Virus record (IMG/VR): IMGVR_UViG_3300032053_000011
Location: 73,515-137,514 of that record
Origin: a virus
DNA: 64,000 bases
Strand: one strand, 5' to 3'
The translations under genes were made by a program, and so were the position numbers. The notes under the pieces were generated by a model. It was given only the letters and a program-made list of their open reading frames with translations, made no database searches and was not told the origin of the DNA. The stretch's first letter is position 1; the number at the start of each line of letters is the position of its first letter. Of this stretch, positions 36,726 to 64,000 are shown in pieces.

Positions 36726-36753
36726 CGGCCGATCGTACGCTAGGATGTTCACC

Positions 36754-45710: not shown

Positions 45711-45715
45711 AGACC

Positions 45716-46983: not shown

Positions 46984-48732
46984 ATGCCCCCATCACTCTT
47001 CGGCAAGAGCACGCCCGCGCCGCTTCGTCGCACCGTCCGTCCCGCGGGTCAGGTCGAGACCCCGCGCGAGACGCTGAAACGAAAGCTTGGCGGGGTCGAG
47101 GTGCCGCTAGAGATGAGCGATGACGAGGTCAGTCGTCTGCTCGCGAATGATGACGCCCGCGCCGCGTGGCTGGCCGCCCGGACCTCGGGGCCTGCGGTGG
47201 CTCGGCAGACTCTGATGCTCCGGCTCGATGTCCACGACCTCCCGCCGGAACTCAGCGATGCCGATGTGACTGCGCTGCTGGCAATGGATGGCCCGACACG
47301 CACGACGTGGTTCCGCGCCCAGCCCTTTTGCACGCCGCCCGCGGAGGGCTTCGCCTCCGAAGCGCTGCGGCAGGCGTGGGCGGACAGTCATCGCTGGTGC
47401 CCGCCTCCCGCCCTCAGCACTGTCCGGGCACCCGGCGGCGCGCCTCTCATGGAAGTGCCGGATCTGCTCTCTCCCGGTGACGCGAACCGCGTCCTCGCCA
47501 ACAGCAACGTCACCTTCTCGTGGAAGACGGTTCGCGGCGCAGCGAGTTACGAGGTGCGGGTCTGCACCGACGCCGCCATGACCCAGGGATGCCTGCCCGG
47601 TGGCGCGGCACAGATCACAGGCCTGAACACGACCTTCGCTGTTCCCGCGGGCGACTACTTCTGGAACGTGCGCGCCATCGGCGCTGACGGCACCGTGGGG
47701 CCGGTCTCCGCGACACGCCATCTGGCGTCGGCCGCGCCTGCCGCCTCACCAAGCCTCGCGGCTCCCACCCTCGCAGGGCCGACCGATGCGGCTCTCGTCG
47801 TCGCGAATGGAACCGTGGCGTTCTCCTGGAATTCCGTGGCGAATGCAACCGGCTACGAGGTCCAGGTCTGCACGGATGCCGCCATGACCCAGGGGTGTTT
47901 GCAGAGCGGCAACGGTCGGACGGCAGCGCCGGACGCGACGATGCTTCTCTTCGCGGTGCCCGCAGGCGATTACTTCTGGCGCGTGCGCGCGATCGCCGCC
48001 GACGGCACGCTCGGTCCGGCATCGGAAGTCCGCCATCTCGCGTCGGCCGCGCCGTCCGCGACGACGACGACCCCGCCCGGGCAACCCCTGCCACCGCCGA
48101 CGCTGATTGCGCCTGCGGACATGACACATGCAGATCCCGACACCCTCGTGACCTTCTCTTGGGCGCTCGTGCCCGGTGCCGCAGGCCATGAATTGGTGGT
48201 CTGTACCGATCCCGGCATGACGGTCGGTTGCCTAACCGGACAGGGACGTCTGCCTGCGCCGCAGAGCACGCTCACCGTGAGTATTCCAGCGGGAACCTAC
48301 TACTGGACTGTGCGCGGCATCGCCGAAGATGGCACCGTCGGTCACTCCGCTGGAGTGCGTCGGTTGCTCGGCGCGTCCGTGGCAGCACCGTTTCAGACGT
48401 CGGTGGAAGCCTTGACCTCGGCGCCAGCGCCGACGACGCCCGCGGCGCCACAGGTGGCGGCGAAGGCCTCGGCAGTGCCATGGATCCTCGGCGCTGCCGC
48501 GCTGGCGGGCGCTGCATGGTGGCTCTGGCCGAAGAGTGATGGCCCGGGTCCGCATTCGAACCCGTCGCATTCGTTCATCGGCAGTCGGGTGACCAAGCTT
48601 GGACGGGGCGCCGGGCGCCGCGGCACGATCCTCTCGCTCGAGGGGTCCGGCCCAATGATGAACGCGACTGTCCGCTGGGAAGACGGCTCGGTGGGGACTG
48701 CCCACGGGAAAGATCTCGGACTGGTCGGCTGA
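46984..48732 (+). CDS. Putative virion membrane protein: three FnIII/Ig-like repeats, a TM anchor and a terminal SH3-like domain
   Basis: Three copies of V.FSW..V.(G/N)A..(Y/H)E..VCTD..MT.GCL...PAG.Y.W.VR; PWILGAAALAGAAWWLW; PAGQ near the N-terminus. Confidence 0.7.
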   Translation: MPPSLFGKSTPAPLRRTVRPAGQVETPRETLKRKLGGVEVPLEMSDDEVSRLLANDDARAAWLAARTSGPAVARQTLMLRLDVHDLPPELSDADVTALLAMDGPTRTTWFRAQPFCTPPAEGFASEALRQAWADSHRWCPPPALSTVRAPGGAPLMEVPDLLSPGDANRVLANSNVTFSWKTVRGAASYEVRVCTDAAMTQGCLPGGAAQITGLNTTFAVPAGDYFWNVRAIGADGTVGPVSATRHLASAAPAASPSLAAPTLAGPTDAALVVANGTVAFSWNSVANATGYEVQVCTDAAMTQGCLQSGNGRTAAPDATMLLFAVPAGDYFWRVRAIAADGTLGPASEVRHLASAAPSATTTTPPGQPLPPPTLIAPADMTHADPDTLVTFSWALVPGAAGHELVVCTDPGMTVGCLTGQGRLPAPQSTLTVSIPAGTYYWTVRGIAEDGTVGHSAGVRRLLGASVAAPFQTSVEALTSAPAPTTPAAPQVAAKASAVPWILGAAALAGAAWWLWPKSDGPGPHSNPSHSFIGSRVTKLGRGAGRRGTILSLEGSGPMMNATVRWEDGSVGTAHGKDLGLVG

Positions 48733-48795
48733 GGCAAGAGTCGCGCAATCTGCGTGAAAGTTGACCGTTCTGCGGTGTCGCCAGACGATGGGCGC

Positions 48796-50445
48796 ATGGA
48801 ACCCTGCAAGCCCTGTGGGCGCGGTCGCCTCTTTCCTTCGACCGCGGGGACCTCGCCAGCGGGCATCTTGGCTCCGGGACTTGGAAACAGGGCCGGTATC
48901 GTATTCCCTGGTCAGAAGAGACTCGGACCACAGCCGTCGGGACAGATCGTCAGCCGCCGTGAGCAACTGCGGGCCAGCCTGAACGTCACCGATCTGCCCG
49001 AGCAGAACAAGGACAACGGCCGAGGCGTCGTCTTCAACGATGCCCATGTGCAATGGCTGCTCGTGATGCCGCTCGATCAGCGACGCGCGCAGTTTCTCCA
49101 CGACTGGTGCACCCTGCCCGACGCAGGGTTCATCAACGAGGCCGCCCGAGCAGCCTGGGCGCGAAGCCATGTCTGGTGTGAAGCCCCGGCGAGCGACACC
49201 GTGCGCGATGTCTCGCGCGCTGCCCTCAAGCTGATGCTCGGATTCGGCAATCAGAAGCTTCCGTCGGAGCTGTCGGATGCCATGGCGCGCGAGCTGATCG
49301 TGATGGGCCGTGATGCAGCAGCCCTGGAATTCCAGCGTCGATTCTGTGTGACGCCCCCGGGCGGATTCGCGACCGATGCGGACATGGCCGCCTGGATGAC
49401 GGACCATGATTGGTGCACCGTTCCCGCGATCCGGGACGCGCGGCCCGGCGCACCCACGCCGTTGAGCGAAGCCGATCAGTACCTGCATACGATGGGGATG
49501 GGGTGTCCGGCCTGGGCGCGAATCACCGACGCAGCCGCTCGGACGCTTCGGCTCCGTTCGTCGAATCCCGATCTCTCTCCCGAGGAAGCCGACCGTCGGC
49601 GCCGGGTCATCGATGCGCAGTGCGGCATCGTCTCCACGCGAGCGGCGTTCGTGGGCGCGACAACGCTTCTGCCCTCGAGCACGAGCACTTTCACTCTGGT
49701 CGGTGGTGGTGGTGCCAAAGGGGGAACTCCAGCAGCTTCGCCGCCACGGACCGGGCCGTTGCCAGCCCCGGTCTTGGGCAACCCGCTTGCGGGCGTCCCT
49801 GTGGTGGCGGATGCCGACGTGTCCTTCAACTGGGCAGCGGTGGATGGAGCGCAGAACTACGAGTTCCGTCTGTGTCTCGATGCCGATCTCCAGCTCGGGT
49901 GCATCACGGGAACAGGTGGCGGCATGATGCTCACTGGCCTCTCGCTCACAATGCGAGTGCCAGCCGGTTCCTACTTCTGGTCCGTGCGCGCTACGGGCAG
50001 CGACGGAACGCCTGGAATTCTTGCCGAAGCGCGTGCTCTTCGGTCTGTGCAGGCCACGACCCAAGTACCGATTCCGGTGCAAACACCGGCGACGCTCCTG
50101 GCGAGCCTCGGCCTGACATGCGACGAGTGGAGCGCACTCACCGCCGATGACCAGGGCACTCGGCTCGCTCTTCTCATTCCGCCATCACGTTCTGGCGATC
50201 CATCAGAAGCCCCGAGAGCGAACCCGATCCCGGCGCAGATCGCCGCCATCAACGTCTACTGCCAGAACCAGTCCATGCTCGATGGCAGAGGCACAAATCA
50301 AGACGCTATACTCCGCCAGACGATGGCACCGCCTGCCGTCGTGCGCAGTAGCCCACTGGTCCCCGTGCTTCTCGTTGCAGGCGCGGTGGGCGTCGTCGGC
50401 CTCGGCTGGTGGATGTTGCGCGATCCGACCCCGGCGCATCGGTAG
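48796..50445 (+). CDS. Putative virion membrane protein (mosaic of Cys-paired modules, one FnIII-like repeat, C-terminal TM)
   Basis: Shares modules with the 46984, 51792 and 58212 ORFs; PSGQ at 48934-48945. Confidence 0.7.
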   Translation: MEPCKPCGRGRLFPSTAGTSPAGILAPGLGNRAGIVFPGQKRLGPQPSGQIVSRREQLRASLNVTDLPEQNKDNGRGVVFNDAHVQWLLVMPLDQRRAQFLHDWCTLPDAGFINEAARAAWARSHVWCEAPASDTVRDVSRAALKLMLGFGNQKLPSELSDAMARELIVMGRDAAALEFQRRFCVTPPGGFATDADMAAWMTDHDWCTVPAIRDARPGAPTPLSEADQYLHTMGMGCPAWARITDAAARTLRLRSSNPDLSPEEADRRRRVIDAQCGIVSTRAAFVGATTLLPSSTSTFTLVGGGGAKGGTPAASPPRTGPLPAPVLGNPLAGVPVVADADVSFNWAAVDGAQNYEFRLCLDADLQLGCITGTGGGMMLTGLSLTMRVPAGSYFWSVRATGSDGTPGILAEARALRSVQATTQVPIPVQTPATLLASLGLTCDEWSALTADDQGTRLALLIPPSRSGDPSEAPRANPIPAQIAAINVYCQNQSMLDGRGTNQDAILRQTMAPPAVVRSSPLVPVLLVAGAVGVVGLGWWMLRDPTPAHR

Positions 50446-50450
50446 GTCCG

Positions 50451-51038: not shown

Positions 51039-51051
51039 CTGCGCCAGTGCG

Positions 51052-51070
51052 CCTGCACGAAAATAGACAG
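51052..51070 (+). promoter_or_regulatory. Conserved 19-mer CCTGCACGAAAATAGACAG (candidate late promoter element)
   Basis: Identical intergenic copies at 62674-62692 and 63905-63923. Confidence 0.65.
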
Positions 51071-51125
51071 CGAAGAGTTCTCGGCCGAGAGTTGACATCC
51101 AGACTCCAACCACGAGGACGATCGC

Positions 51126-51338
51126 ATGTACGCAACGACGACTGCACCCGCTGGCTACTCGAGCCGCATCGGTTCCAGCTCCATGGTCCAGGCCTCGGGA
51201 CAGGCCGTCACCGCGACGCCTGCCGTCGATCTGACGCCCCACCAGATGCAGGTGCGATCCGACCTCGTGTCGTACTTCGCGCTCGGCGGCGCCATCCTCG
51301 GCCTCGCCATCGGCATCATGAACCGCCACCAGGGCTAG
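51126..51338 (+). CDS. Small membrane peptide, copy 1 of 3
   Basis: ASGQ...LTPHQMQVRSDLVSYFALGGAILGLAIGIMNR; GAGG RBS. Confidence 0.8.
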   Translation: MYATTTAPAGYSSRIGSSSMVQASGQAVTATPAVDLTPHQMQVRSDLVSYFALGGAILGLAIGIMNRHQG

Positions 51339-51419
51339 TTCATCGCGCTCGCCTATCGAGCGCCTCGCACGCCTTCTGTTTCCCACAGGCTCTCAAACGA
51401 TCGATTGACGGAGACGAAA

Positions 51420-51701
51420 ATGCCCGACGCGACCACGACTGACACGACCACGACCGAACCCCTCAACCTCCGCGGCTCCGAGTACGCGGCGCTCGCCGTC
51501 GGCACCGTTGTCGCTGGCGCGTTCGGCGCCGTCCTCGGCCATGCCATCGGCGACGCCATCAAGAGCATGAAGGACCGCAAGGCCCTCGGTGCCGGGGCGC
51601 ACGACAACCCCTACGAGAATCCGCGCTACCACTACACCCGTGGTGGCCAGGGTCACTACGGCTACCGTCCGGCGGGCGATCGTCCCGGCGGCCGTCGCTA
51701 G
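51420..51701 (+). CDS. Small membrane protein with an NP-containing basic tail
   Basis: Gly-zipper TM; HDNPYENP; GGAG RBS. Confidence 0.7.
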   Translation: MPDATTTDTTTTEPLNLRGSEYAALAVGTVVAGAFGAVLGHAIGDAIKSMKDRKALGAGAHDNPYENPRYHYTRGGQGHYGYRPAGDRPGGRR

Positions 51702-51791
51702 TCGTTCCGTCCCGTCGGTCCGTTCCAACGAGGATGCCTTTCGCGTGACGTGCCCGTCCGTTGAGTAGGCACGTCCACGCGGAGGCATCTC

Positions 51792-53864
51792 ATGGCAGCG
51801 GTCTGGCAGCTCATTCACATCCGCGCACGCGTTGACGGTGACCGTGCCACCGTGGACCCGAACGGATCCTGGGATATCCTGCATTGGGCGGATGTCGAGC
51901 TCGCGCGTGCATGGATCCGGCAGGCCTCTGCCGCGATCGATCCGCAGCGAGTCCGCGATGCAGACGCTGGTGGTCATGCCGCACAGGTTGCGCTGCTCGT
52001 AGCCGTCACCTTCGCGATCGCCAACGCCTACAACGCCATGAACATCCTGTGGGAGAACGACCCGCTCGCACGCATGCGATACCGGGCGTCCCTCTCCGGG
52101 CCCCCCGCGAGTAGCAGCAGCGAATACTCCGCCTACGACAACTATGGCGGCGGGCATTGGTACCGGGCCAACGAGAGCTTCCCGACAGCCGGTGGCATTC
52201 GTTTGTTGGATGGCGAGCAGGTGCACGCCGAGGACTTCACCGGCAGCATTCCAATGCTGGCGCGTCAGATCTTCCTCCAGGACTACCCTCTCGGACGCCG
52301 TGTGGCGGAGATGCATCCCAGCGAGTTCCGGCAATCAGTCGGTGTCTACGTGGACTCGCAGGGCCGCCTGGACGCCCAGGGACGGCCCGCAGACGTATTC
52401 GAAGACGTCCGTACCTCGAGGAATCGGATCAACCGGCCCTTCGTGATGGGCGATCTGCCGCAAGAGATTCTCCCCGGAACTGATCCGAGCACTGGACGCG
52501 GGAGCAACGCCCCTCTGTCCCCCGAGAATTGGTGCCGTACCAATCGAGACTTCGAATGTCCGAGGTGGATCAGCCCGGCTGCATTCATGGGATTCGTCAC
52601 CGGTGTCGTCACGAGCGGCGGAGGTGTCCTTTGTGGACCCGCGCCGCCAAGGCGCGCCGATGAAACGGCAGTCGACACGGCCTGGGGCGCCATCCAGCGA
52701 TCTGTCACGATGCACGCGAATTGCGCGAACCTCGACTGGCATTACGGAATGTTCGTGGAGGCGCTCCGCATCACCACGCATCTGGCACTCGTCATCACCG
52801 ACGACCTCAATCCGTTCGTTCCATTGCCGGTCTGGGCGCCGCTGCGCGCCTATCTGCCGTGGCTCCAGGCATGGATCGGAGATCTCGAGAGTCGGTCGCC
52901 TGAACAGATCATCGTGGACAGCCGCAAGTTCGTGATTCAGCAGAATCTGCATTGGATCCAGAACGCAGGCGGTCCCGATGCATTCTATCGACAGCTCCTC
53001 GCCGGGCAGGAGAATCGCGCGGCAGACCAGGGTGCCGCCGATCCGAATGTGCAGATGGCCGCTGCGGCCGTCGGTGCCATTGGCGCCGCTCTCGCAGGAG
53101 CGACGTACGGCATCTCCGCTGTTGCGGGCGCCGTGATCGGTGCGGGTCTCACGATCTGGGACGCGTCACGGACGCATGACGTCGCGCCCGATGGCAACTT
53201 CAAGGACGACCTCGGTCGGTACAAACCATCGTTCGCGCTCGGCTGGCTTGGCGGACTCGGACCAGGATTTCCCGGCGAGGAAGGTCACCCTGATAACGCT
53301 CGCCTTCCGATCCCTGACCCGCCAGGATTCCAACGCGGCGGTCGGCCTACCGTGCAGGGTCCGAATGCCGGGCAGACCTACCTGAGCGACCTTGGAATGG
53401 GCTGCGATGCCTGGGCGCGAATCAGCGATCCGGCCGCGCGAACGATCCGACTCCGGTCGGCCTCGGTGAACCGTGGCATCGATCCGGCGGAAGGCGATCG
53501 CCGCCGAGTCCTCGTCGATGCGTATTGCGCCAGTCAGGGCGCCCAAGTCAGAGGAGCCGTGAATCCGCCGGTCCTGAACATAATGGCTGTCCTGACGTCG
53601 ACGACCCCTGGCAAGGGCGTCACGGAGACCGCGACGCAGACATTGACCTCGACGCCAGCAGCGCCCCCATCGACAACGACGCCAGCGACATCAACGACGC
53701 CTGCGTTGGAGATCCTGCCAGCGCACAACGAGGTCGTGCAACTGACCGAGATCGTGCCCGCACCGCGCAAGGTATGGCCGTGGGTCGTCGGTGGTGTCGT
53801 GGTCCTTGGTGCAGGCGCAGGCGGCTACTGGTGGCTGCATCGCGACAAGCGACCGCACCAGTGA
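51792..53864 (+). CDS. Large putative virion protein with a Gly/Ala hydrophobic hairpin and C-terminal TM
   Basis: AAAAVGAIGAALAGATYGISAVAGAVIGAGLTIW; MGC.AWARI module; WPWVVGG...YWWLHRDKR; GGAGG RBS. Confidence 0.75.
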   Translation: MAAVWQLIHIRARVDGDRATVDPNGSWDILHWADVELARAWIRQASAAIDPQRVRDADAGGHAAQVALLVAVTFAIANAYNAMNILWENDPLARMRYRASLSGPPASSSSEYSAYDNYGGGHWYRANESFPTAGGIRLLDGEQVHAEDFTGSIPMLARQIFLQDYPLGRRVAEMHPSEFRQSVGVYVDSQGRLDAQGRPADVFEDVRTSRNRINRPFVMGDLPQEILPGTDPSTGRGSNAPLSPENWCRTNRDFECPRWISPAAFMGFVTGVVTSGGGVLCGPAPPRRADETAVDTAWGAIQRSVTMHANCANLDWHYGMFVEALRITTHLALVITDDLNPFVPLPVWAPLRAYLPWLQAWIGDLESRSPEQIIVDSRKFVIQQNLHWIQNAGGPDAFYRQLLAGQENRAADQGAADPNVQMAAAAVGAIGAALAGATYGISAVAGAVIGAGLTIWDASRTHDVAPDGNFKDDLGRYKPSFALGWLGGLGPGFPGEEGHPDNARLPIPDPPGFQRGGRPTVQGPNAGQTYLSDLGMGCDAWARISDPAARTIRLRSASVNRGIDPAEGDRRRVLVDAYCASQGAQVRGAVNPPVLNIMAVLTSTTPGKGVTETATQTLTSTPAAPPSTTTPATSTTPALEILPAHNEVVQLTEIVPAPRKVWPWVVGGVVVLGAGAGGYWWLHRDKRPHQ

Positions 53865-53895
53865 GATAGTGCCTTTTGAGGAGATCAGAGCCCAT

Positions 53896-55398: not shown

Positions 55399-55406
55399 AG
55401 CGCCAC

Positions 55407-55958: not shown

Positions 55959-57184
55959 CGTACCCACAAGCTCCAAACTTCCGTACCAGCACCTTCGGCG
56001 ACGCGTGGTGGCGAGTGGCGCGCAACGGCGTCGCTCAGCTCATCGAAACGGACGGATTGGCGACGACGGTCCAGATCCAGATGATGCTGTTCAATGGCGT
56101 CCCGTCTGGTACTCGAACCTTCGATGGCGTCACGCCTCATCAAGTGCGGATCGATGGCGTCCTCGGACCGGATTCGCTGCGCGCGCTCTGGGCGTACGGC
56201 AAGACGGTCATGGCGGTACCGGCGACGGCTTTCGCACAGATCCAGGCCGACGCCGCAGCGCGGAGAATCACCGCCGAAACGTATCGGATCGCCCTCTGGC
56301 TCGCATACAACCAGCCGAGAAATGTCGATCTGACCGAGGGGCCGACCAATGCCCGTCGCCGTGTGCGTCGGACTGATCCAGCGATTTTGTGGATCCAGAC
56401 GCTGGGCGGCGTCTCGCTCGCTCCGGGTGCGCAACTGCCGCAGTGGCTCGAGCGTCCGGCGATTCCGGTGAACACCAATCAATCGCCAGCGCCCCCGCAG
56501 GTCACAGCGCTCTCTTCGGATGGCACCCGGACCACGGACGTGATGCAGGTCCCCGATGAGCCGACCGCGCCGCCGCCCGCGCAGCCCGCTCAAGCACCGG
56601 CGCTCGTGCCGGAAACGGCGACACCGGTGGGCACGACACCGACGCCTGCACCGGCGACAACGCCGGATACGAATGCGACGCCCGACGACACCAGTGCCAC
56701 ACCAGCAACGCCTCCCGCAGCCGCGAGCTCGACGAACTACGTCCCCTGGATTCTGGGTGGCCTCGCAGTCGCGGCAGCGGTGGGCATCGGGATCGCGGTC
56801 ACGCGCAAGAAAGACGCGCATCCCGCGCTCGGGCCGAGTGGACCGAGTGGACGTCCGGCGCCCGCTGGCATGCCGCCGCACGCAGCACCGCCCCTGCATG
56901 CGAATCCATCCGACGCTCGAGGGTCGACGACCGGCGGTATTCACCAGCAGCACGACGTGCCTCGATGGGTGCTCGAACATGGCATCAGCGATGCCACGCG
57001 GCGCGATCGCATCAATCAGGCGCTCGCGCTCGCCATGAAGATGAACAACCGGAAGGGCGATGCAATCGTCGGCACGATCTGGGAAGGGCTTCTGACCCCT
57101 CCAACCTCGCCAGAATTGCTTCATGATTTTCTCCGCTCGCCGCTCTGGCACAAGTTCGCGAGCCGCGCCGCCACACGGCTGTAG
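55955..57184 (+). CDS. Membrane-anchored protein with a peptidoglycan-binding-like motif (paralog 1)
   Basis: MTYPQAPNFR...AWW; IDGVLGPDSLRALW; Pro/Thr linker; TM followed by RKK. Confidence 0.7.
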   Translation: MTYPQAPNFRTSTFGDAWWRVARNGVAQLIETDGLATTVQIQMMLFNGVPSGTRTFDGVTPHQVRIDGVLGPDSLRALWAYGKTVMAVPATAFAQIQADAAARRITAETYRIALWLAYNQPRNVDLTEGPTNARRRVRRTDPAILWIQTLGGVSLAPGAQLPQWLERPAIPVNTNQSPAPPQVTALSSDGTRTTDVMQVPDEPTAPPPAQPAQAPALVPETATPVGTTPTPAPATTPDTNATPDDTSATPATPPAAASSTNYVPWILGGLAVAAAVGIGIAVTRKKDAHPALGPSGPSGRPAPAGMPPHAAPPLHANPSDARGSTTGGIHQQHDVPRWVLEHGISDATRRDRINQALALAMKMNNRKGDAIVGTIWEGLLTPPTSPELLHDFLRSPLWHKFASRAATRL

Positions 57185-57243
57185 CGCGCGGCGCGGACTG
57201 CGCGAAAGATGACGGCGCTCTAAGCATCTGAGAGCCTTCATCG

Positions 57244-57609
57244 ATGGCATGCAGGTTCCCGACCCCGAGCGGCAACGTCCAGGCTAGCCCGCGCGGACTC
57301 AATCAGTTCGATGTGGAGTTCGTGTCGCGGCTGCTTGCGGGCACCGACGGCCGCGCCTTCACAAGGCCTGACTGGAATCGCGCGGAACAAGCCGCGCACG
57401 CGACTGCGATCGAAGCCGCCCGGCACAAGGCTGCGAACGCGCAGCGCGAAACTGCGCGAACTCCCAATCCGCGTCCCTCTGGTCAGGTCGCTCCCGCGGA
57501 CACGCTCACGCCGCACCAGATGCTGGTCCGGTCCGATCTCATCTCGTATTTCGCCCTCGGCGGCGCTGTTCTCGGCCTCGCCATCGGCGTCGCGAACTGC
57601 CACCGGTAG
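57244..57609 (+). CDS. Small membrane peptide, copy 2 of 3, with a long leader
   Basis: PSGQ...LTPHQMLVRSDLISYFALGGAVLGLAIGVAN. Confidence 0.75.
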   Translation: MACRFPTPSGNVQASPRGLNQFDVEFVSRLLAGTDGRAFTRPDWNRAEQAAHATAIEAARHKAANAQRETARTPNPRPSGQVAPADTLTPHQMLVRSDLISYFALGGAVLGLAIGVANCHR

Positions 57610-57666
57610 TTCCAAGAATCGCTTCGAAACCGTCAACGAATCGCTCACTCGACAAGGATCATCCCC

Positions 57667-57837
57667 ATGCGCAACAACATCTTCCCCAGTGGTCAGTCCA
57701 CCGCCATCACTCCGGCGCCCGCGGCCGAGCTCACGCCGCACCAGATGCAGGTACGATCCGACCTCGTGTCGTACTTCGCGCTCGGCGGCGCCGTGCTCGG
57801 TCTCGCCATCGGCATCATGAATCGCTCCAAGAAGTAG
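57667..57837 (+). CDS. Small membrane peptide, copy 3 of 3 (56 aa, absent from the ORF track)
   Basis: MRNNIFPSGQSTAITPAPAAELTPHQMQVRSDLVSYFALGGAVLGLAIGIMNRSKK; AAGGA RBS. Confidence 0.8.
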   Translation: MRNNIFPSGQSTAITPAPAAELTPHQMQVRSDLVSYFALGGAVLGLAIGIMNRSKK

Positions 57838-58211
57838 GCCGATCGCGTCCGTTCGCTCGCCATCTGAGGCAGGCGTGGCGGACGCGTTGCTCCACTCCAC
57901 CAACAATCTTCATTGGGAGATTCGCGAATGGCTTGACGACGCTCAGCACCGGTGGTCACCGGTACAGCAGCCCCTTCGAATGCTCAGCCCAGCGCGGAGG
58001 ATGCGGCGATTCTCGCGCAGTTCCTCGCGTCGTGTCCGACGTGCGATCCGACAGACGCAGCTCTCGCGCAGTTTGCAGCGTCGCTTCTCGCGACCCAGCC
58101 GCCGAAGAGATAGCCTGTTCCAATCAGCATCTTCGCGGCCACGACCTCGCCACCGCAAACTGCCCCTGCACAAAAGTAGTCGACAGACTCCGCCTCCGAT
58201 ACGGTAACCCC

Positions 58212-59879
58212 ATGTCGGGTTGCACAGGATGCGGCGTATGTTTCCCGGGACAGTCCCTCGGCACCGGAGGGCGCTGCGCAGGCGGCTGTGTGCCCCGGCA
58301 GCCGCAGGCGGCTGACCCGCGCCATCCATTCGCGGAATCACTCGCATTCCAGCGGCAGGAACAAGGCCGTCGCACCCTCATGCTGATGGGCAAGGACTTC
58401 CACGACTGTGCAGCATGGCTCGCACTCAGCGATGCCGACAAACGCATCCAGGTCGCGCGCGGACTGCATGTGCCCGCAGGGTCCAACTTCAGCTACGAGT
58501 TCGCTGTTTCGAGAATCGATGAATACTGCGCTGCAAATGCGCCGGAAGGAAGTGTCGCGATGGCTTCAGGAGCGCTGTTTGGCAAGCCGCAGGCGAGTGG
58601 GATGGCTCTTCCGGGTGGCGCGCGTCCCGCGTTCCCGCTCGGGCCATCGGGCATGACTCTTCCGGGAGGCGCCCGTCCGGGCTTCCCGCTCGGGCCGTCG
58701 GGTATGGCTCTTCCGGGTGGCGCGCGTCCCGCGTTTCCGCTCGGGCCGTCCGGCCAGATCAACCCCGGCATCGCCGCCGCGGAAGCGGAGGCTCGTGCAC
58801 GCGGCGGCCGTGCGCTCCTGCTCATCGGCCTGGACTGCCTCACGTGGTCGCGCATGCCCTTCGACAACAAGGTCGAAGCGCTGCGTCGCGGCCTGCGTAC
58901 GCCTCCGGTCACGCGCCTGGACTTCGATCGTGCCATCAACGAGATGGACGCGTACTGCACGTCGATGGGCTTCCCGCCGCCCGTCAGGGCCACGGGCTTT
59001 GCCGCTGCCACCGAGTACAAGAGCCCGCTCCGCTCGGGAGGGTCGGCCATCACGGGGCTCTTCGGGAAGAATGCCGGGACATTCCAGCAGAAGACCAGCG
59101 CCTCGGGCCAGTTGACCGCGAGCGCCAACACGCTCACCGATCAGGGTCGTGCCCTGGATGTGGCGATGCACGCCGCTCTCGCGCGCAACGACTATGCGAC
59201 GTACGAGCGGTTGTGGAAGCAGGCGTCACAGCTCACCCAGGCCGCGCGGATCGCCAGGATGGATGCATTCTCGCGACCGGGCATGGGACTCGCAGACCCG
59301 CAGAGCCTCCGCGCTTCGGGACAGATCGACATCGCGCCGATGTCGATCGTCGGCGGCCTGAGCGCTGCTTCGTGGAACGGCCTCTCGGACGTCGATCGCC
59401 TCACCTACCTGCTCAACAACGCGCAAACCACCGCGCTGCTCGAAGAGACTCGCAACATCGGTCTCGAGCAGGGATACCGAGGCATCACCGAGGCGGTCAA
59501 CGCCGCCGAGGCCGCGATGGGTCTGGATCGCGTGGCTGCATCGGGCACGGCTGGGGGCTGGGAGAATCAGGCTCGCGAACTGGTGCATGCCTCGGGACAG
59601 ACGGCTGTCACCGAGTCCGCTCCCGGGGCCACCAACATCACCGCGACGCCCGCCGCCGCCACGCCCGTTGTCGCTGCGAAGATGACGGTGTCGCCATGGG
59701 TCGTCGCCGGACTCGGCGCTGCGGTGATCGCAGGAGTGGTGATCTACCGCAAGTCTTCCAAGGAAGAGCCCGCGCACGGCCCCTATGGCGTGCGTGGTGG
59801 CGAGAACGAGTCACATCGCGGCGGGTCGAACCTGCCGAACCCCTCGGGCCAGTCTCCGTACTATCCCGTCGCGCGCTGA
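58212..59879 (+). CDS. Putative virion polyprotein with multiple [P/A]SG junctions and a C-terminal TM
   Basis: Cys-rich leader; ASG-M, 2x PSG-M, PSGQ, 3x ASGQ, and a further PSGQ after the TM. Confidence 0.7.
   Translation: MSGCTGCGVCFPGQSLGTGGRCAGGCVPRQPQAADPRHPFAESLAFQRQEQGRRTLMLMGKDFHDCAAWLALSDADKRIQVARGLHVPAGSNFSYEFAVSRIDEYCAANAPEGSVAMASGALFGKPQASGMALPGGARPAFPLGPSGMTLPGGARPGFPLGPSGMALPGGARPAFPLGPSGQINPGIAAAEAEARARGGRALLLIGLDCLTWSRMPFDNKVEALRRGLRTPPVTRLDFDRAINEMDAYCTSMGFPPPVRATGFAAATEYKSPLRSGGSAITGLFGKNAGTFQQKTSASGQLTASANTLTDQGRALDVAMHAALARNDYATYERLWKQASQLTQAARIARMDAFSRPGMGLADPQSLRASGQIDIAPMSIVGGLSAASWNGLSDVDRLTYLLNNAQTTALLEETRNIGLEQGYRGITEAVNAAEAAMGLDRVAASGTAGGWENQARELVHASGQTAVTESAPGATNITATPAAATPVVAAKMTVSPWVVAGLGAAVIAGVVIYRKSSKEEPAHGPYGVRGGENESHRGGSNLPNPSGQSPYYPVAR
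58602..58754 (+). repeat. 3 x 51-bp in-frame tandem repeat (M[A/T]LPGGARP[A/G]FPLGPSG)
   Basis: Directly visible, with synonymous differences between units. Confidence 0.9.
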
Positions 59880-59946
59880 GGAAACTCGCGCCTCGCTGAG
59901 AGTCGTCTCTTCTCGATCAACGCCGTCCCGCACAACGAGGTCCACC

Positions 59947-60900
59947 GTGGCATTCCCGAGCAACGCTCCGAACTACAACTCCGCCACCGCAATGTCCGCA
60001 TGGTGGGTCGAACGCGGCGCCTCCGAGCAGTCCGTGGTCGCGACGACCGGCAATGCGTTCGTCAAGCGGCTCCAGAACCAGCTCACGGAGTACTTCCTGG
60101 CGCTGTCACGCAACGCACCCGTGATCGGCGCGCTCAATCCGAACGAGCATGCCTACGGCGGCGGACGCGGTGATGTTGCCGAGATCCGCTTCGACTGGCA
60201 CGCCATCGGCAACGATGCCAACTGGGGACCGGTGACCAATGCCGCCCTCTGGCGCTGGGTTGAAAACCAGCGCGCGAGCACCGTCGGAGACGATGCTCTG
60301 CATGGTCTCCAGTTCCATCTCGATCAGATCGAGCTGACCGTGAAGGATGGACGGATCAACTTCGAGACCCTCAAGGCCGCGATCTGGGCCGCACGCCATT
60401 CGACGATCGGCTTCGCCGCCGCGATGGGTAAGATCGAACTCGCCACCGCGTCGATGCTGAATCAGATCACGCCGCCGCCGTGGCGCCATGTTGCGCCCGC
60501 GCCTGCCGCCGCCGAGCTCGGGAAGTTCTACACGTGGAACCCCGACACGACGCCGGTCGCGACGCCTCTCTCGCAGGGCGGCGGATCTCCGGCGATCACG
60601 ACGACCACGCCGAGCACTCCCGCCGCACAGGGACAGGGAGTCACGATGACGCCCGCGGTGAGCACCGCAGGCACTGACCAGGACATCAAGCTCGAAGATC
60701 GCACCATGGGCCTGACGCGCAATCAATGGTTGCTCGGCGGCGCCATTCTTCTGGGTGTGGCCGGAGTGGCCTACTACACCAAGGACAAGAAGGATGGTCA
60801 CCCCGGCCATCCCGGCGGGCCGGGAGGTGGACCGGGTGGGCCGCCCGGACACGGCTACGGTCCTTCTCCCCATTCTCCCAGCCACGCGGCGCGGCGGTAG
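59947..60900 (+). CDS. Membrane-anchored protein with a peptidoglycan-binding-like motif (paralog 2)
   Basis: GTG start with GAGG; APNY...SAWW; DANWGPVTNAALW; TM followed by a Gly/His/Pro tail. Confidence 0.7.
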   Translation: MAFPSNAPNYNSATAMSAWWVERGASEQSVVATTGNAFVKRLQNQLTEYFLALSRNAPVIGALNPNEHAYGGGRGDVAEIRFDWHAIGNDANWGPVTNAALWRWVENQRASTVGDDALHGLQFHLDQIELTVKDGRINFETLKAAIWAARHSTIGFAAAMGKIELATASMLNQITPPPWRHVAPAPAAAELGKFYTWNPDTTPVATPLSQGGGSPAITTTTPSTPAAQGQGVTMTPAVSTAGTDQDIKLEDRTMGLTRNQWLLGGAILLGVAGVAYYTKDKKDGHPGHPGGPGGGPGGPPGHGYGPSPHSPSHAARR

Positions 60901-60909
60901 GAGACCACG

Positions 60910-61671
60910 ATGACGTACCCGGCAGCACCGAACTTCCGCCTCGGCGATCCAGGCTCCGCATGGTGGGTCGTGCAGACCCCCGAGGGTCCGCGCGTCACCA
61001 TCACGCAGTGGGATGTCGTCCTGCGCATGTTCCAGGACAAGGCAAAGAACCACTTCCTGCCTGCGATCTACGGCCGTTCGAACAGCGGAAGCTGTCCGCG
61101 GACGACATCGCGTGTCTGGGGCGATGTGTGGGGCGTGCTGTCGGCCAATGCGCGCTCGCGATCCGACATCGCGGTCGATGGCCTGTGGCACGACGACACC
61201 GCCGACATTCTCTGGGCGCTGCTCTGCATGACGCATCAGACGACGCGCGCCGAAGAATGGGCGTTGGCAGCGAACGAGCGCTCGATCACGCACGAGGCTG
61301 TGCGGCAGATCATCTGGTTCGCGTTCTACGTGGACGCGGTGGATCCTGATCCGCAGGCGCCAGCGCCATGGCATTCGTCGGTGGACGGCACCACTCTGGT
61401 GTTGCCGGACAACGCGGTATTGCCTCTGTGGCAGTCGGCGCCGCAGAGTCTGCGCGAAGACAGCACGTGGTCCGGGACCTTCCGGCCGGGTGTCGATCCG
61501 ATGCCGATGTCGCCGAGTCAGGCGGCTGCCGCAGCGCGTCCTCCGGTGACGATTCAGCCGGTCACGACGCCGATGCGCGTGTCAGTGCCGATGACGCTGG
61601 GAATTCTTGCTCTCCTCGCCGCCGGTGCATGGGTTCTGTCCGCTCCTTCCTCGCCGGGCGCTCACCGCTAA
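60910..61671 (+). CDS. Membrane-anchored protein with a peptidoglycan-binding-like motif (paralog 3)
   Basis: MTYPAAPNFR...SAWW; VDGLWHDDTADILW; C-terminal TM; AGGAG RBS. Confidence 0.7.
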   Translation: MTYPAAPNFRLGDPGSAWWVVQTPEGPRVTITQWDVVLRMFQDKAKNHFLPAIYGRSNSGSCPRTTSRVWGDVWGVLSANARSRSDIAVDGLWHDDTADILWALLCMTHQTTRAEEWALAANERSITHEAVRQIIWFAFYVDAVDPDPQAPAPWHSSVDGTTLVLPDNAVLPLWQSAPQSLREDSTWSGTFRPGVDPMPMSPSQAAAAARPPVTIQPVTTPMRVSVPMTLGILALLAAGAWVLSAPSSPGAHR

Positions 61672-61676
61672 CACCC

Positions 61677-62636
61677 ATGGCGAAGCGTCGCGCGCCACAC
61701 TGCAAGCCCGCCGATATCCGCGCTGCCGCGGAGGCGTACCGGGCCTTGCACGATGGCATCGAACCCACGGAGATCGAGTGCCGTGCGTGGGACGTGCGCA
61801 AGCCGCGCTTCGAGGTGGAGCTCGGGCCGATGCCTGAGAACCGCTACATCAAGAAGCACGTCGAGGAAAATGAGCCGCGGAAAGACGTCTACCGGCACAT
61901 CAACTTCGAAGAACTCCAGAAGACCGATCCCGCACTCGCCGAAGAGTACATGCCCGTTCTGGTCCACAACGACCGGGGCGAAATGCGCATCGAGCAATCC
62001 CATCGCGGACGCAATTACACCGTGACCTCTCACGGCATCGAGGACATTCCCATGCACGACAACGACGGTGACGGTTACGGCATGTACGGCATCCGACGGA
62101 ACGCATCGCCCTACGCGGCCCCAGCAGAAGCTGCGGCCGAACAAAGGCGACAGGCCGAGATGCTCGGTCAGCCGGGATACGGCGGCGGCTATCGGCCCCC
62201 CGCGCCGACCACGCAGGGGGCCCGGTCATTCTTCACGGACATGGCGATCATCGGCGGCTGGGCCGGTGGCGCGACCATCCTCGGCGCGATGGCGATGCGC
62301 GACACGCGCATGTCGCATCCGATGAAGGCGACTCTCACAGGAGTGGTTGCGACGGGCACCGGCCTCGCCGTCAATCAGAAGGCTCCTCGAATCGCGATCG
62401 GTCTCGCCGCAGGTGGCGTGGCGAACCTGCTCCAGGCGCTGTTCGAAACGATGATCGCCGAGCCTGTCCCGGCGCCTGCCCCATTGCAGACGTCTGCGCA
62501 GCAGCTCGTGGCTGCGCCTGCGATCTCGGCGCCGCTCCCCGCTCAAGCACCGGTGCAACTCAATGCACCGCCTGCGATCGCACCCGCGGGACACGTGAGC
62601 AGGCAGGGCATCAACCTCATGATGCGAGGCCGCTGA
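61677..62636 (+). CDS. Putative structural protein: soluble N-terminal domain plus 2-3 Gly-rich TM segments
   Basis: Starts MAKRRAPH; hydrophobic segments in the C-terminal half; PAGH near the end. Confidence 0.65.
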   Translation: MAKRRAPHCKPADIRAAAEAYRALHDGIEPTEIECRAWDVRKPRFEVELGPMPENRYIKKHVEENEPRKDVYRHINFEELQKTDPALAEEYMPVLVHNDRGEMRIEQSHRGRNYTVTSHGIEDIPMHDNDGDGYGMYGIRRNASPYAAPAEAAAEQRRQAEMLGQPGYGGGYRPPAPTTQGARSFFTDMAIIGGWAGGATILGAMAMRDTRMSHPMKATLTGVVATGTGLAVNQKAPRIAIGLAAGGVANLLQALFETMIAEPVPAPAPLQTSAQQLVAAPAISAPLPAQAPVQLNAPPAIAPAGHVSRQGINLMMRGR

Positions 62637-62661
62637 ACAGGCGACGTCCAGAGATGCGGCA

Positions 62662-62769
62662 CGTGTAGAAGCCCCTGCACGAAAATAGACAGGCGCAGAG
62701 GCTCAGGGCACAACCGACAAAACGGCCCACTTCAATCGCGGCCAACCACCCGTCCAAGAGGAAATCCAC
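62662..62769 (+). repeat. 108-bp direct repeat, copy 1 (promoter, leader and RBS of the 62771 gene)
   Basis: Identical to 63893-64000. Confidence 0.92.
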
Positions 62770-62770
62770 C

Positions 62771-63763
62771 ATGAGCAGCGACACTCTGAATTCGGTTGCC
62801 GCGTATCTCGGTCAAAGCGCGCGCACGTACCCCATGATCCAGGGCAACCAGGAACTGATTCCTGGCCGGTCGTTCGGTGCCTGCTGCGATCCGCTCTTCG
62901 CCGACGCGCCCTCCGCGCTCATGGTCGAGCGCTGGTCCACCATCCGCCTCTTGCTGGTGCTCAACGCTGCGGGTCAGCTCGTGCTGACGCCGAATGTCGG
63001 CAACCAGTTCCCGTCGTTCTTCGCCGTGGGTCAGAGCGATCCGGGCGCGCCCGCGGGCATCTGGGAGCAGAGCAACATCACGCAGTCGAACCTGTACGCC
63101 GGTGGCGCACCGGTCGATCGCGGGCAGCTCTTCCTGTGCTTCGGTCACTCGATCGAACCGGTCGGCCTGATCAACCGCGTTTCGCCGGTCACGCCCTTCG
63201 CGCCGATCCCGGCCTCCGGCGTGGGCGGCACCGCTGGCGACGCGGTCAACTCGGTGTTCGCGACCCTCTCGGGCTCGGGCAGCTACGAGACCCGCATCAT
63301 CAAGGCGATCCTGGAGCGCGTGTCGCTCACGGCCGTCTTCGGTGGAGGTTCGAACTTCACGTACGTGCTCGGCAACCTCAGCGACGCGCCGTCGATGTCG
63401 CAGATCTTCGGCAACGAGGCGACGACCTTCGGTCAGCCGATCTGCAACTGCTTCAAGCCGTACATGGCCGTGCTCATGATCAATGCGCGCGACGAGAGCC
63501 GCAAGCTGACGGTCACCACGGGCGTCCCCACGGGCGTCGTGATCGGACCGGATCCGTTCAATGTCCTCCCCATCACGGTGGACCCGGCGGCGTTCTACCT
63601 CGAGGTCAAGATGCGCATGTTCGGCATCCCGGTCTGCGCGACCGACTCGCTCCTCTGCGGCGTGCCCTCGGGCCCGGTCGCCCCCGATGCGACCGCGCTG
63701 CGCGCGGCGATCTACGACGAACTGAAGCGCATGCAGGCTGGCCAGCTCGGCCCCGGCCGGTAG
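62771..63763 (+). CDS. Candidate major capsid protein (possibly single jelly-roll)
   Basis: Soluble and beta-rich, 330 aa, with strongly biased codons, a GAGG RBS and a dedicated repeated leader. The FFAVGQ...TQSNL..GG...GQLF...G.SI pattern recalls jelly-roll capsid proteins, but this is unverified. Confidence 0.45.
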   Translation: MSSDTLNSVAAYLGQSARTYPMIQGNQELIPGRSFGACCDPLFADAPSALMVERWSTIRLLLVLNAAGQLVLTPNVGNQFPSFFAVGQSDPGAPAGIWEQSNITQSNLYAGGAPVDRGQLFLCFGHSIEPVGLINRVSPVTPFAPIPASGVGGTAGDAVNSVFATLSGSGSYETRIIKAILERVSLTAVFGGGSNFTYVLGNLSDAPSMSQIFGNEATTFGQPICNCFKPYMAVLMINARDESRKLTVTTGVPTGVVIGPDPFNVLPITVDPAAFYLEVKMRMFGIPVCATDSLLCGVPSGPVAPDATALRAAIYDELKRMQAGQLGPGR

Positions 63764-63892
63764 TAGCTTCCCAAGCTCCGCGCGGACCGAGTGGATCGGT
63801 AGATCCTCGGTTCGCGCATCTCTCCTCCATCACTTCCTCGCCCCCTCACTACATCCTGCCGAATAGCACTCACGCCCCAATGTTGAGGCGCG

Positions 63893-64000
63893 CGTGTAGA
63901 AGCCCCTGCACGAAAATAGACAGGCGCAGAGGCTCAGGGCACAACCGACAAAACGGCCCACTTCAATCGCGGCCAACCACCCGTCCAAGAGGAAATCCAC
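63893..64000 (+). repeat. 108-bp direct repeat, copy 2 (truncated by the window end)
   Basis: Identical to 62662-62769; ends at the RBS-spacer GAGGAAATCCAC. Confidence 0.92.

Follow-up and report, generated by a model that had tools for sequence, protein, structure and literature searches.

Putative late gene module of anchored membrane proteins and a new predicted jelly-roll family in an uncultured virus of at least 247 kb

Results and discussion

The window analysed here (the whole stretch of 64,000 nucleotides of viral DNA) contains a block at 46984-63763 that is filled by 16 co-oriented plus-strand ORFs (Table 1). Our tentative reading, with confidence just short of even, is that these ORFs form a late module under common regulation, and that the uncultured virus carrying it is a jumbo virus, probably tailed, with a genome of at least 247 kb. 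The block may build the virus particle. Its products are dominated by membrane-anchored proteins, and its last gene founds a new family, for which a single jelly-roll fold is predicted.

Genome size and gene content

The window lies on a contig (G000) of 137,514 b. Its exact 690-aa protein (51792..53864) occurs in the record of a 247,125-b contig, and a contig of that size also carries exact copies of seven proteins from a further contig, L005 (111,128 b). The sequence of L005 begins within a jelly-roll gene that shares 82% identity with that of the window, with its first 126 nt identical to the window's copy. The virus genome is at least 247 kb, the window's contig represents about 55% of it, and about 100 kb lie outside the data. 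The CheckV completeness of 93% for the window's contig is at odds with the 247-kb contig, and the latter was trusted over that estimate. The element is thus viral and large, as the earlier note had proposed, and is larger than supposed there.

Outside the block, the gene content is typical of tailed phages. The contig carries DUF5131, L5 gp82, GP88, RecT, and YqaJ genes, all from the tailed-phage gene pool, together with a Corndog gp96-like AAA ATPase (42.9% identity, E 2e-116), and L005 encodes an N4 gp24-like ATPase that was matched in 733 phage records. In addition, ten tRNAs were identified, with a suppressor tRNA in the array.

Block layout, anchors, and the promoter-like box

A hydrophobic anchor, mostly C-terminal, was detected in 14 of the 16 block ORFs, bearing out the earlier description of co-oriented genes in which membrane-anchored proteins predominate. 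The pattern for uncharged hydrophobic stretches identified 13, and the Kyte-Doolittle scan added 60910-61671; the scan alone flagged 12/16 block ORFs versus 28/135 ORFs elsewhere on the 137.5-kb contig. Only the transglutaminase-like ORF and the last gene lacked a clear anchor. The translations of the anchored ORFs revealed no signal peptides but a common anchor cassette, consisting of a Pro/Thr linker, often with (V/S)PW, a Gly/Ala-rich helix, Lys/Arg directly C-terminal of each helix, and then P-x-H-x-P, with Pro/Thr stalks and Cys-paired Ig-like domains preceding the helix. A second anchored-protein cluster, with the glycan enzymes GH64 and NAGPA, was found elsewhere on the contig.

Pairwise comparison revealed that the modules of the block proteins are shuffled and locally duplicated. 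The first ORF has two N-terminal 'LSDAD...WC' module copies, three Ig/FN3-like repeats, and a Pro/Thr linker before its anchor; its modules are common to the 48754 ORF (E 4e-15 to 3e-9), whose 'GMGC.AWARI' module recurs in the 51792 ORF (51.5% over 66 aa, E 1.7e-13). Similarly, the N-terminus of the 55955 ORF is shared with the 60910 ORF (E 1.7e-4), the 51126 peptide matches its 57667 copy at 79%, and 51-nt repeats at 58599-58754 (family D3) underlie the 17-aa repeats of 57933-59879. The true start of the 53791..55398 ORF is probably downstream of 53791, that of the 61368..62636 ORF is probably the Met near 61677, and the translation suggests the Met near 58212 as the probable start of 57933-59879.

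Table 1 Features of the block and its promoter-like boxes
Feature	Position	Strand	Basis
582-aa anchored protein with 66-aa tail	46984..48732	+	Translation; anchor AVPWILGAAALAGAAWWLW
563-aa anchored protein, same modules as the 46984 ORF plus 'GMGC.AWARI' module	48754..50445	+	
Transglutaminase-core (papain-like) protein, 209 aa	50409..51038	+	Pfam PF01841
Promoter-like box CCTGCACGAAAATAG	51052..51066	+	60 nt before ATG at 51126
Small anchored peptide, copy 1 of 3, LTPHQMQVRSDL plus TM	51126..51338	+	Repeat family D1
98-aa single-TM protein	51405..51701	+	Hydrophobicity scans
690-aa protein, internal hydrophobic region, C-terminal anchor VWPWVVGGVVVLGAGAGGYWWL	51792..53864	+	
Protein with Cys-rich N-terminus, long Pro-rich region, coiled region, C-terminal anchor	53791..55398	+	
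183-aa anchored protein	55407..55958	+	Translation, anchor pattern
409-aa protein, N-terminal 'MTYPxAPNF...WW' module, anchor YVPWILGGLAVAAAVGIGIAVT, 126-aa tail	55955..57184	+	
Small anchored peptide, copy 2	57244..57609	+	Family D1, anchor
Small anchored peptide, copy 3	57667..57837	+	Family D1, anchor
Anchored protein, Cys-rich N-terminus, three 17-aa tandem repeats, C-terminal anchor	57933..59879	+	
Promoter-like box CCTGCACAAAAGTAG	58165..58179	+	Inside listed ORF 57933-59879
371-aa anchored protein, Gly/Pro/His-rich tail	59785..60900	+	Translation, anchor
253-aa anchored protein, N-terminal paralogue of 55955	60910..61671	+	Translation, Kyte-Doolittle
Membrane protein just upstream of jelly-roll gene	61368..62636	+	Translation, anchor
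111-nt leader, copy 1	62659..62769	+	Box at 62674-62688 plus ribosome-binding site; family D2
330-aa predicted single jelly-roll protein, new-family founder	62771..63763	+	Profile search, predicted fold
111-nt leader, copy 2	63890..64000	+	Box at 63905-63919; 99% identical to copy 1

A 15-nt promoter-like box (CCTGCAC-RAAARTAG) had four matches in the window, all on the plus strand and all in the block, where 0 were expected in the window (100 shuffles). The initial 74.5 kb of the contig had no match, and L005 had one, located 24 nt before the first spike-like gene. The contig end falls 1-2 nt before the start codon that follows leader copy 2. The 16 same-strand ORFs agree with the earlier description of the block as co-oriented, and the four sites support its co-regulation as one unit.

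Family searches

Among the 10 large block proteins, only one Pfam match exceeded its curated cut-off, namely Transglut_core (PF01841) on 50409-51038 (E 1.9e-8, 35 bits, cut-off 23), and three were sub-threshold (FlxA and two Ig-like domains). None of the 14 Pfam families found in 50 window proteins was on the six smaller block ORFs. PHROG searches matched the 46984 ORF at the Ig-domain level to phrog_31 (tail fibre J, 2.4e-8) and phrog_4971 (major tail protein, 3.9e-6), and otherwise gave one weak match, to an uncharacterised family. Terminase, portal, sheath, baseplate, and tape-measure families were found by neither search in the block, as had been noticed from the letters alone. Moreover, a six-frame HMM search of G000 with eight models (Terminase_6N, TerL_ATPase, Terminase_6C, Terminase_3, Phage_capsid, Phage_portal, Pox_A32, and FtsK_SpoIIIE) gave 0/8 at E <= 1, including 0/6 for the Caudoviricetes terminase, capsid, and portal models. 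No packaging-ATPase-like protein was found among the Walker-A proteins of the contig, and no structural PHROG among the families listed for 83 + 10 + 10 + 10 proteins (25 of 31 for the 83-protein set).

In the 148 kb seen (the 137.5-kb contig and 10.9 kb of L005) of the genome, neither TerL nor an FtsK/HerA or A32-type packaging ATPase was present, L005 genes included, nor were genes for tail tube, sheath, baseplate, or tape measure; the sole tail-type signals were the tail-fibre-kind Ig-like domains and the spike-like paralogues. The flanks had been proposed as a means to discriminate between a packaging ATPase on the one hand and an HK97 capsid, terminase, or portal on the other, and these 148 kb contained neither set, with ~100 kb outside the data. 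To our knowledge, no icosahedral dsDNA virus of this size manages without a packaging ATPase. The enzyme must therefore lie in the unseen sequence; the morphogenesis set is thus incomplete in the data, and absent head and tail genes carry little weight.

The jelly-roll protein and its family

The protein encoded at 62771-63763, which the earlier note had called capsid-like, is real, conserved, and confidently predicted as a single jelly roll (pLDDT 85.1, pTM 0.81), in a model with one beta sandwich of about nine strands, but the term capsid is an interpretation rather than an observation. A Bamfordvirae-type double jelly roll was rejected owing to the single sandwich in the model and the absence of a fused double form (none of the 123 profile hits > 415 aa). 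All structural neighbours had Z <= 5.9, under the 7-8 that the tool gives as its noise ceiling, and were a mix of capsid proteins of membrane-containing viruses, cement/turret proteins of tailed viruses, and cellular jelly rolls. The top neighbour was the turret protein of the tailed virus HFTV1 (Z 5.9, 104 residues aligned, rmsd 3.3), and the KHP40 cement protein reached Z 5.3-5.4. The capsid proteins of SPV1, HHIV-2, HCIV-1, SH1, and P23-77 (VP17) gave Z 4.7-5.6 over 133-151 residues, also below the noise ceiling, including the longest alignments (SPV1, 147-151 residues; HHIV-2, 144; HCIV-1, 140-145; P23-77 VP17, 147). Comparable Z values were obtained for nucleoplasmin, a peptidylglycine monooxygenase domain, polyomavirus VP1, and tailed-virus cement/turret proteins. 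The predicted fold bears out the jelly roll of the earlier reading, but the model resembles capsid proteins no more closely than unrelated jelly rolls resemble one another.

At the sequence level, 62771-63763 founds an undescribed protein family, which comprises 123 cluster representatives in a whole-library profile search. Four cysteines are invariant in the 12 closest members. The family had no Pfam, PHROG, PDB-sequence, or GenBank-phage match: four of four members queried were without a match in GenBank phages (50,697 records), and 0/114 members matched a PHROG or the Pfam P3 or P2 families. Its absence from GenBank phages and PHROGs argues against its being one of the accessory proteins known from tailed phages in culture. 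In a protein language-model search, the nearest named clusters were all PRD1 P3 or PM2 P2 capsid families (0.75-0.77, lead level only). The family was carried only by large contigs (163, 137.5, 111, 90.8, 77.8, 67.4, and 65.6 kb). The GC3 of the gene (0.90) tied for the highest among the contig's long genes, a hint of abundance.

Furthermore, a large (about 300-330 aa) then small (about 175-182 aa) gene pair was conserved in L005, L006, and L007 (30% identity, E 3e-15) and also occurred on the P0009/P0140 contig (tied by the same 3,498 b size), the small partner being beta-rich and conserved in four contigs. A LAGLIDADG-like ORF, with its motif read by eye, adjoins the jelly-roll gene in L006 and L007; LAGLIDADG-type endonucleases typically lie beside essential conserved phage genes.

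Competing interpretations

The earlier note had favoured an apparently tailless, membrane-containing icosahedral virus. By analogy with Halopanivirales, P23-77, and SPV1, its major capsid proteins would be a pair of single jelly rolls, with the 330-aa protein as the large and the about 180-aa partner as the small one. The anchored proteins would sit in the virion membrane, inserted tail-first with cytoplasmic, capsid-facing N-terminal domains, and the spike-like paralogues would form vertex spikes. We consider this unlikely. The confident single jelly-roll prediction, the longest alignments, and the PRD1 P3 and PM2 P2 language-model neighbours are consistent with it, as are the conserved pair, the LAGLIDADG-like ORFs, the restriction of the family to large contigs, the 14/16 anchored ORFs without signal peptides, and the lack of HK97 capsid, portal, and terminase genes in the 148 kb. 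The predicted single jelly-roll core and the adjacent large and small genes have counterparts in P23-77 VP17/VP16, HHIV-2/SH1/HCIV-1 VP4/VP7, and SPV1, the pair resembles that of Halopanivirales-type capsids, and many membrane-protein genes lie nearby, as in internal-membrane viruses. However, the Z values tie with those of unrelated and tailed-virus jelly rolls, no sequence signal accompanies them, the order here is large then small, and the anchored proteins are large (183-690 aa) rather than small. The ATPase adjoins the capsid genes in known internal-membrane members, but none of FtsK/HerA or A32 type was found near these genes or anywhere in the 148 kb. Characterised prokaryotic internal-membrane viruses have genomes of about 10-31 kb (about 16-31 kb for the P23-77/HHIV-2/SH1/HCIV-1/SPV1 group), roughly eight times smaller than the at least 247 kb here. 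PRD1 P3 and PM2 P2, from membrane-containing tailless phages, differ from the single sandwich and the Pfam-negative family found here, and the best PRD1 alignment (Z 3.8) came from a low-confidence model of the jelly-roll protein. Tailless was therefore not upheld, given a contig of about 55% of the genome, neither packaging ATPase in the 148 kb, and a tailed-phage gene pool; of membrane-containing, the anchored-protein genes stand and the internal virion membrane is conjecture.

A non-structural block, namely a late or lysogenic host-envelope effector cassette in the host inner membrane acting in superinfection exclusion, adhesion, envelope remodelling, or lysis control, seems improbable as well; here the jelly-roll protein would be an abundant non-virion neighbour, e.g., a lectin-like or nucleoplasmin-like oligomer. 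Lys/Arg after the helix, with stalks and Cys-paired Ig-like domains before it, suggests an N-out, C-in orientation under the established positive-inside rule, a typical envelope topology, and the shuffled, locally duplicated modules resemble diversifying surface-protein families; the second anchored cluster with glycan enzymes and the equal scores of cellular jelly rolls also fit. This would leave the export of N-terminal domains as long as 660 residues unexplained, given the lack of signal peptides. The box before the jelly-roll gene also precedes anchored-protein genes and the L005 spike-like paralogues, and the jelly-roll family is conserved over 123 clusters with invariant cysteines on large virus-like contigs only.

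The late module of a probably tailed jumbo virus is the reading we prefer. The Ig-like domains of the first ORF appear to be of the kind in tail fibre J and major tail proteins, and the top or near-top neighbours of the predicted model include tailed-virus proteins (HFTV1 turret, KHP30/KHP40 cement, and Pam1 cement; Z 5.9, 5.3-5.4, and 4.5), which are abundant on virion surfaces. Unlike these proteins of 114-140 residues, to which it has no sequence similarity, the 330-residue protein has an N-terminal arm, long insertions, and a C-terminal helix, and its family is absent from GenBank phages. Size, tRNA array, paralogous families, and sediment origin recall the metagenomic huge phages > 200 kb, a group defined by hallmark capsid, portal, and terminase genes, none of which occurs in the 148 kb seen. 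Against a tailed virus, all head, tail, and terminase genes would have to cluster in the unseen 100 kb, and an internal-membrane virion would account for the large-small pair and the anchored set no less naturally.

In the preferred module, the box would drive at least four transcription units, headed by a small anchored peptide, a 648-aa anchored protein, the jelly-roll gene, and the next gene, and in the genome's continuation the same box precedes a cluster of spike-like paralogues. One kind of product would be about 14 bitopic membrane proteins with one C-terminal anchor cassette and shuffled N-terminal modules (Ig/FN3-like repeats and Cys-rich heads), with a transglutaminase-like neighbour; their role would probably be at a membrane, during assembly, egress, or exclusion in late infection. 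The other would be an abundant single jelly-roll protein, probably encoded by two paralogous genes in tandem, each preceded by the same leader, with one or two small beta-rich partners downstream, and likely serving in the virion as capsid-surface cement, decoration, turret, or fibre-associated protein. The data themselves show the gene layout, anchors, paralogy, box, fold class, genome size, and missing packaging enzyme; late timing, abundance, virion association, and tailed architecture are what we infer. On this reading, the roughly 100 kb outside the data would contain the genes for the capsid shell, portal, packaging enzyme, and tail.

Implications

It is rather unlikely that this is the first jumbo (at least 247 kb) prokaryotic virus with a tailless membrane icosahedral particle, a shell of new-family single jelly-roll capsid proteins (large paralogues in tandem and their small partners), and about 14 tail-anchored proteins lining the virion membrane. 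If true, it would represent a new large-genome lineage beside the Halopanivirales-type and PRD1-type viruses. All tailless membrane-containing viruses of bacteria and archaea known to us have small genomes, and a 247-kb member would shift the view of how this architecture scales and of the origin of large jelly-roll viruses. Even if the virus is tailed, the block defines a family of membrane proteins that lack signal peptides and share an anchor cassette, and for which known export routes explain neither topology nor targeting. Likewise, the new jelly-roll family (123 clusters) is widespread but rare and confined to large viral contigs, and the conserved large-small gene pair defined here holds its value in a tailed virus too.

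Extent of the genome and probable tandem jelly-roll genes

The 690-aa protein of the block (51792–53864) is recorded in exact form on a 247,125-b contig, as are seven exact proteins of L005, a metagenome locus carrying a member of the jelly-roll family. This indicates that the 137,514-b virus record (G000; 63.5% G+C), whose final 64 kb form the window, and the contig of L005 both come from one genome, which measures at least 247 kb. The jelly-roll protein of the window has its only exact record on the 137,514-b contig. L005 forms the beginning of a contig of 111,128 b, and its sequence opens 60 nt into a jelly-roll gene, the product of which is 82% identical to that of the window; over the first 126 nt, L005 and the window copy do not differ, and the similarity stops about 76 nt past the stop codon. 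The window itself ends in a second copy (99% identical) of the 111-nt leader that precedes its jelly-roll gene, 1–2 nt short of the expected start codon. On the simplest reading, two tandem jelly-roll paralogues lie each behind the same leader, their ~300-nt repeat having interrupted one of the assemblies. The lengths fit this arrangement, as 137,514 + 61 + 111,128 gives 248,703, and subtracting one 1,231-b repeat unit leaves 247,472, 347 b off 247,125, which is compatible with, but not proof of, an assembly that collapsed the pair. In addition, one sediment run, possibly the source, contains 0.95 of the words, and its short contigs over 62926–63066 fall into two versions: the first has 0 differences, the second 22 differences and 3 gaps, which fits either a second diverged copy (paralogues) or a second strain. 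Two other runs contained small shares alone and were left out of any statement on habitat.

A circular and near-complete G000 (CheckV completeness of 93%) was considered and rejected: no terminal repeat was found when looked for in G000, the 247,125-b contig exists, and the downstream 9.9 kb of L005 has no counterpart in G000 except for a spike-like N-terminus. The CheckV value for a 137.5-kb record conflicts with the 247-kb contig and looks wrong for this lineage. After the jelly-roll pair, the gene order in L005 is small partners (~180-aa proteins), a 483-aa protein, an ATPase, spike-like paralogues, an anchored protein and a papain-like protein. The two small partners are paralogous (66% identical), the second being fused to a CxxCxxCC domain, and the four spike-like paralogues have a common N-terminus and variable C-termini. 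Among twelve L005 proteins, only these four spike-like N-termini had counterparts in G000, all matching one domain near the start of the window. This domain lies in ORF 1596–2003, which overlaps ORF 1892–2941 in another frame; the overlap may reflect either a frameshift or two separate genes. The ATPase of L005, which is N4 gp24-like, sits among otherwise unknown genes.

Architecture of the membrane-anchored block

The description of a 17-kb co-oriented block rich in anchored proteins, given in the earlier note, held up: 46984–63763 comprises 16 ORFs on the + strand, 14 of them with an anchor. An uncharged hydrophobic stretch was present in 13, and hydropathy added 60910–61671; hydropathy alone flagged 12 of the 16, compared with 28 of 135 ORFs elsewhere. 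No N-terminal signal peptide was seen by eye in any of the 16. About ten of the proteins have one anchor cassette in common, consisting of a Pro/Thr-rich linker, often (V/S)PW, a Gly/Ala-rich helix, Lys/Arg and a P-x-H-x-P-like motif. The charge distribution of the anchored proteins suggests an N-out orientation, yet they lack a signal peptide.

The N-terminal portions of the anchored proteins are mosaics. Ig/FN3-like repeats occur three times in the first ORF and once in the second (E 4e-15 to 6e-12), a further module is present in two copies in each of these ORFs, and a 66-residue module is common to the second ORF and the 690-aa protein (51.5%, E 1.7e-13). Moreover, three small anchored peptides are paralogues with identities of up to 79%, 50409–51038 matched Transglut_core, and the 648-aa anchored protein (57933–59879) contains tandem repeats. 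The first ORF gave Ig-level matches to the tail fibre J and major tail protein families, and a search of two block proteins against PDB sequences returned nothing or noise. A peptidoglycan-binding appearance of the ORFs at 55955, 59785 and 60910, noted by eye, was unsupported and dropped. The 12-nt palindrome CTGGAATTCCAG was found in three exact copies (45084, 46412 and 49327), encoding in-frame 'LEFQ' in a genome of 63% G+C; GAATTC-centred 'LEFQ' motifs were discarded as promoter candidates, their 40 sites not being restricted to the block. Three ORFs just upstream of the block resemble host genes and may be informative about the host.

Family and fold of the jelly-roll protein

The last gene of the block (62771–63763; 330 aa; GC3 of 0.90), described earlier as capsid-like, encodes a protein with 11 close homologues. 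A whole-library profile search detected 123 cluster representatives at E <= 0.001 and 64 at E <= 1e-10, all of 208–415 aa. The window protein, the close homologues and 102 of 120 new representatives were aligned (114 sequences), the 18 with partial or split matches being left out. None of the 114 matched a PHROG, Pfam gave only noise (six families, each in at most two members, E 0.012–0.042), and two family profiles retrieved nothing meaningful from PDB sequences. Likewise, none of four queried members matched GenBank phages (50,697 records), and searches of viral contigs (including an exact 60-mer of L005), genome contigs and plasmids found no member, a weak absence given that these collections may omit records very near the window. 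Literature listings and abstract openings yielded no report of a large tailless prokaryotic virus or of this protein family.

Modelling from 12 sequences at first gave a pLDDT of 56.7; this model was replaced by an AlphaFold2 model from the 114-row alignment (pLDDT 85.1, pTM 0.81). The newer model contains a single beta sandwich built from about nine strands, some 12–18 residues long, and has an arm at the N-terminus and a helix at the C-terminus. This prediction supports a jelly-roll fold for the supposed capsid protein. Foldseek found no match at E <= 0.001 in PDB or BFVD, and an exhaustive structural aligner returned eight chains with Z >= 5, none of them reaching Z 8, with the same picture on a repeat search. 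The matches included the HFTV1 turret (Z 5.9, 104 residues aligned), the SPV1 capsid protein (Z 5.6, 151 residues), a plant nucleoplasmin-like domain (Z 5.4), the HHIV-2 capsid protein and KHP40 cement protein (both Z 5.3), peptidylglycine monooxygenase (Z 5.2), HCIV-1 (Z 4.8) and P23-77 VP17 (Z 4.7). By the aligner's stated norm, a model that has no real relatives still usually reaches best scores of 7–8, so these matches reveal no more than the fold class. A language-model search placed the protein with unnamed viral clusters at 0.94; the closest named clusters were only the PRD1 P3 and PM2 P2 capsid families, at 0.75–0.77, which is lead level.

Members of the family were also present on long contigs of 163,089, 90,751, 77,784, 67,379 and 65,558 b. 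In two further metagenome loci, L006 and L007, the jelly-roll proteins (42–43% identical) are followed by a ~182-aa protein, a homologue of the 175-aa protein encoded behind the jelly-roll gene of L005 (30% identity, E 3e-15). The genes of these small partners occupy 1030–1557 in L005 and 2141–2689 in L007. A further homologue, P0140, and the jelly-roll family member P0009 are each recorded on a 3,498-b contig, presumably the same one. The conserved LAGLIDADG-like ORF next to the jelly-roll gene in L006 and L007 is possibly a homing endonuclease beside a conserved gene.

Gene content and a promoter-like box

Codon-usage gene calling gave 147 genes in G000, mainly leftward in the left 74 kb and mainly rightward in the window. 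Family scans of 83 left-part genes, 50 further window genes and three sets of ten identified two DnaB-like helicases, RecT, YqaJ/RecE, DUF5131, L5 gp82, GP88, peptide deformylase, PTH2, RNB nuclease, a Ser/Thr kinase and AAA ATPases, one of the latter 42.9% identical to mycobacteriophage Corndog gp96. These replication, recombination and accessory genes are typical of tailed phages. The DnaB query retrieved only generic relatives from viral contigs (80 loci, L008–L087; 30–38% identity), which were left out of the later comparisons. Ten tRNA genes were detected, one with anticodon CUA; the block gave no sign of TAG read-through, and its jelly-roll gene stops with TAG TAG. No structural family was among those listed in the scans (25 of 31 families for the left part). 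The earlier note had set a packaging ATPase against an HK97 capsid, terminase or portal, and six-frame HMM searches of the whole of G000 turned up neither side, with none of eight families at E <= 1 (Terminase_6N, TerL_ATPase, Terminase_6C, Terminase_3, Phage_capsid, Phage_portal, Pox_A32 and FtsK_SpoIIIE). The 715-aa gene was dropped as a possible large capsid protein, since it looks like a GHKL/MutL-type ATPase: its N-terminus gave a weak match of this type (PDB E 0.011), and HATPase_c_3 is in the contig's Pfam list. It had no match in GenBank phages.

Coordinates of features in the window, in G000 and in the related loci
Feature	Location	Details
Spike-like N-terminal domain ('NNPRIK...')	window 1596–1830	homologous to tandem paralogues at L005 6005–8641, E 3e-7 to 7e-20
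tRNA-Ile	window 32355–32424	
524-aa Ser/Thr kinase with transmembrane helix	within window 43355–46387	Pkinase, E 7e-44; just upstream of block
ORF with signal-peptide-like start and TPR-like content	within window 43355–46387	just upstream of block
Cys-rich lipoprotein-like ORF	within window 43355–46387	just upstream of block
Three tandem 51-nt repeats	window 58599–58754	83–93% identical; encode 17-residue 'GMALPGGARPAFPLGPS' unit in 648-aa anchored protein
Eight-tRNA array	G000 4448–6147	locus L001
Separate tRNA, anticodon CUA	G000 16506–16580	locus L001; amber suppressor type, ARAGORN call Pyl
715-aa gene	G000 36490–38637 (-)	L002 17493–19637; strongest codon-usage score on contig
N4 gp24-like AAA ATPase	L005 4063–5151	28–29% identity, 733 phage records; 3 kb downstream of jelly-roll pair
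LAGLIDADG-like motif ORF (by eye)	L006 1072–1734 (-); L007 310–792 (-)	just upstream of jelly-roll gene, opposite strand

The box CCTGCACRAAARTAG occurs at four sites in the window (51052, 58165, 62674 and 63905), all on the + strand within the block and 33–83 nt ahead of a likely start; none was expected by chance in 100 shuffles. A 14-nt core of the box has no match in the initial 74.5 kb of G000 and one match in L005, 24 nt ahead of the first spike-like gene. With box sites before them, the anchored-protein, jelly-roll and spike-like genes look like one regulon, which may be late.

Interpretation of the block

The proposal of a tailless, membrane-containing virus with a large genome was built on absent head, tail and terminase genes, together with the anchored proteins and the capsid-like gene. 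The large genome was borne out. The argument from gene absence now counts for little because the sequence covers only about 55% of the genome, plus 10.9 kb of L005. The jelly-roll fold, the conserved large–small gene pair, the anchored proteins without signal peptides and the absence of the family from all deposited tailed phages (four members queried, 50,697 records) are real and agree well with a virion that contains an internal membrane. However, the sequence seen also contains no packaging ATPase, which a tailless jelly-roll virus needs, suggesting that the morphogenesis genes are not all in view; moreover, the tRNA array and the pool of accessory genes speak for tailed phages. A tailless, membrane-containing virus is rated unlikely, though as the strongest of the rival readings. 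That the block is a non-structural envelope-effector cassette ranks somewhat behind it as a further improbable reading, and the rest of the odds falls to something else. The leading interpretation, held tentatively and at a little short of even odds, is that the block may be the late module of a tailed-type jumbo virus, in which the jelly-roll proteins would be abundant virion accessory proteins.
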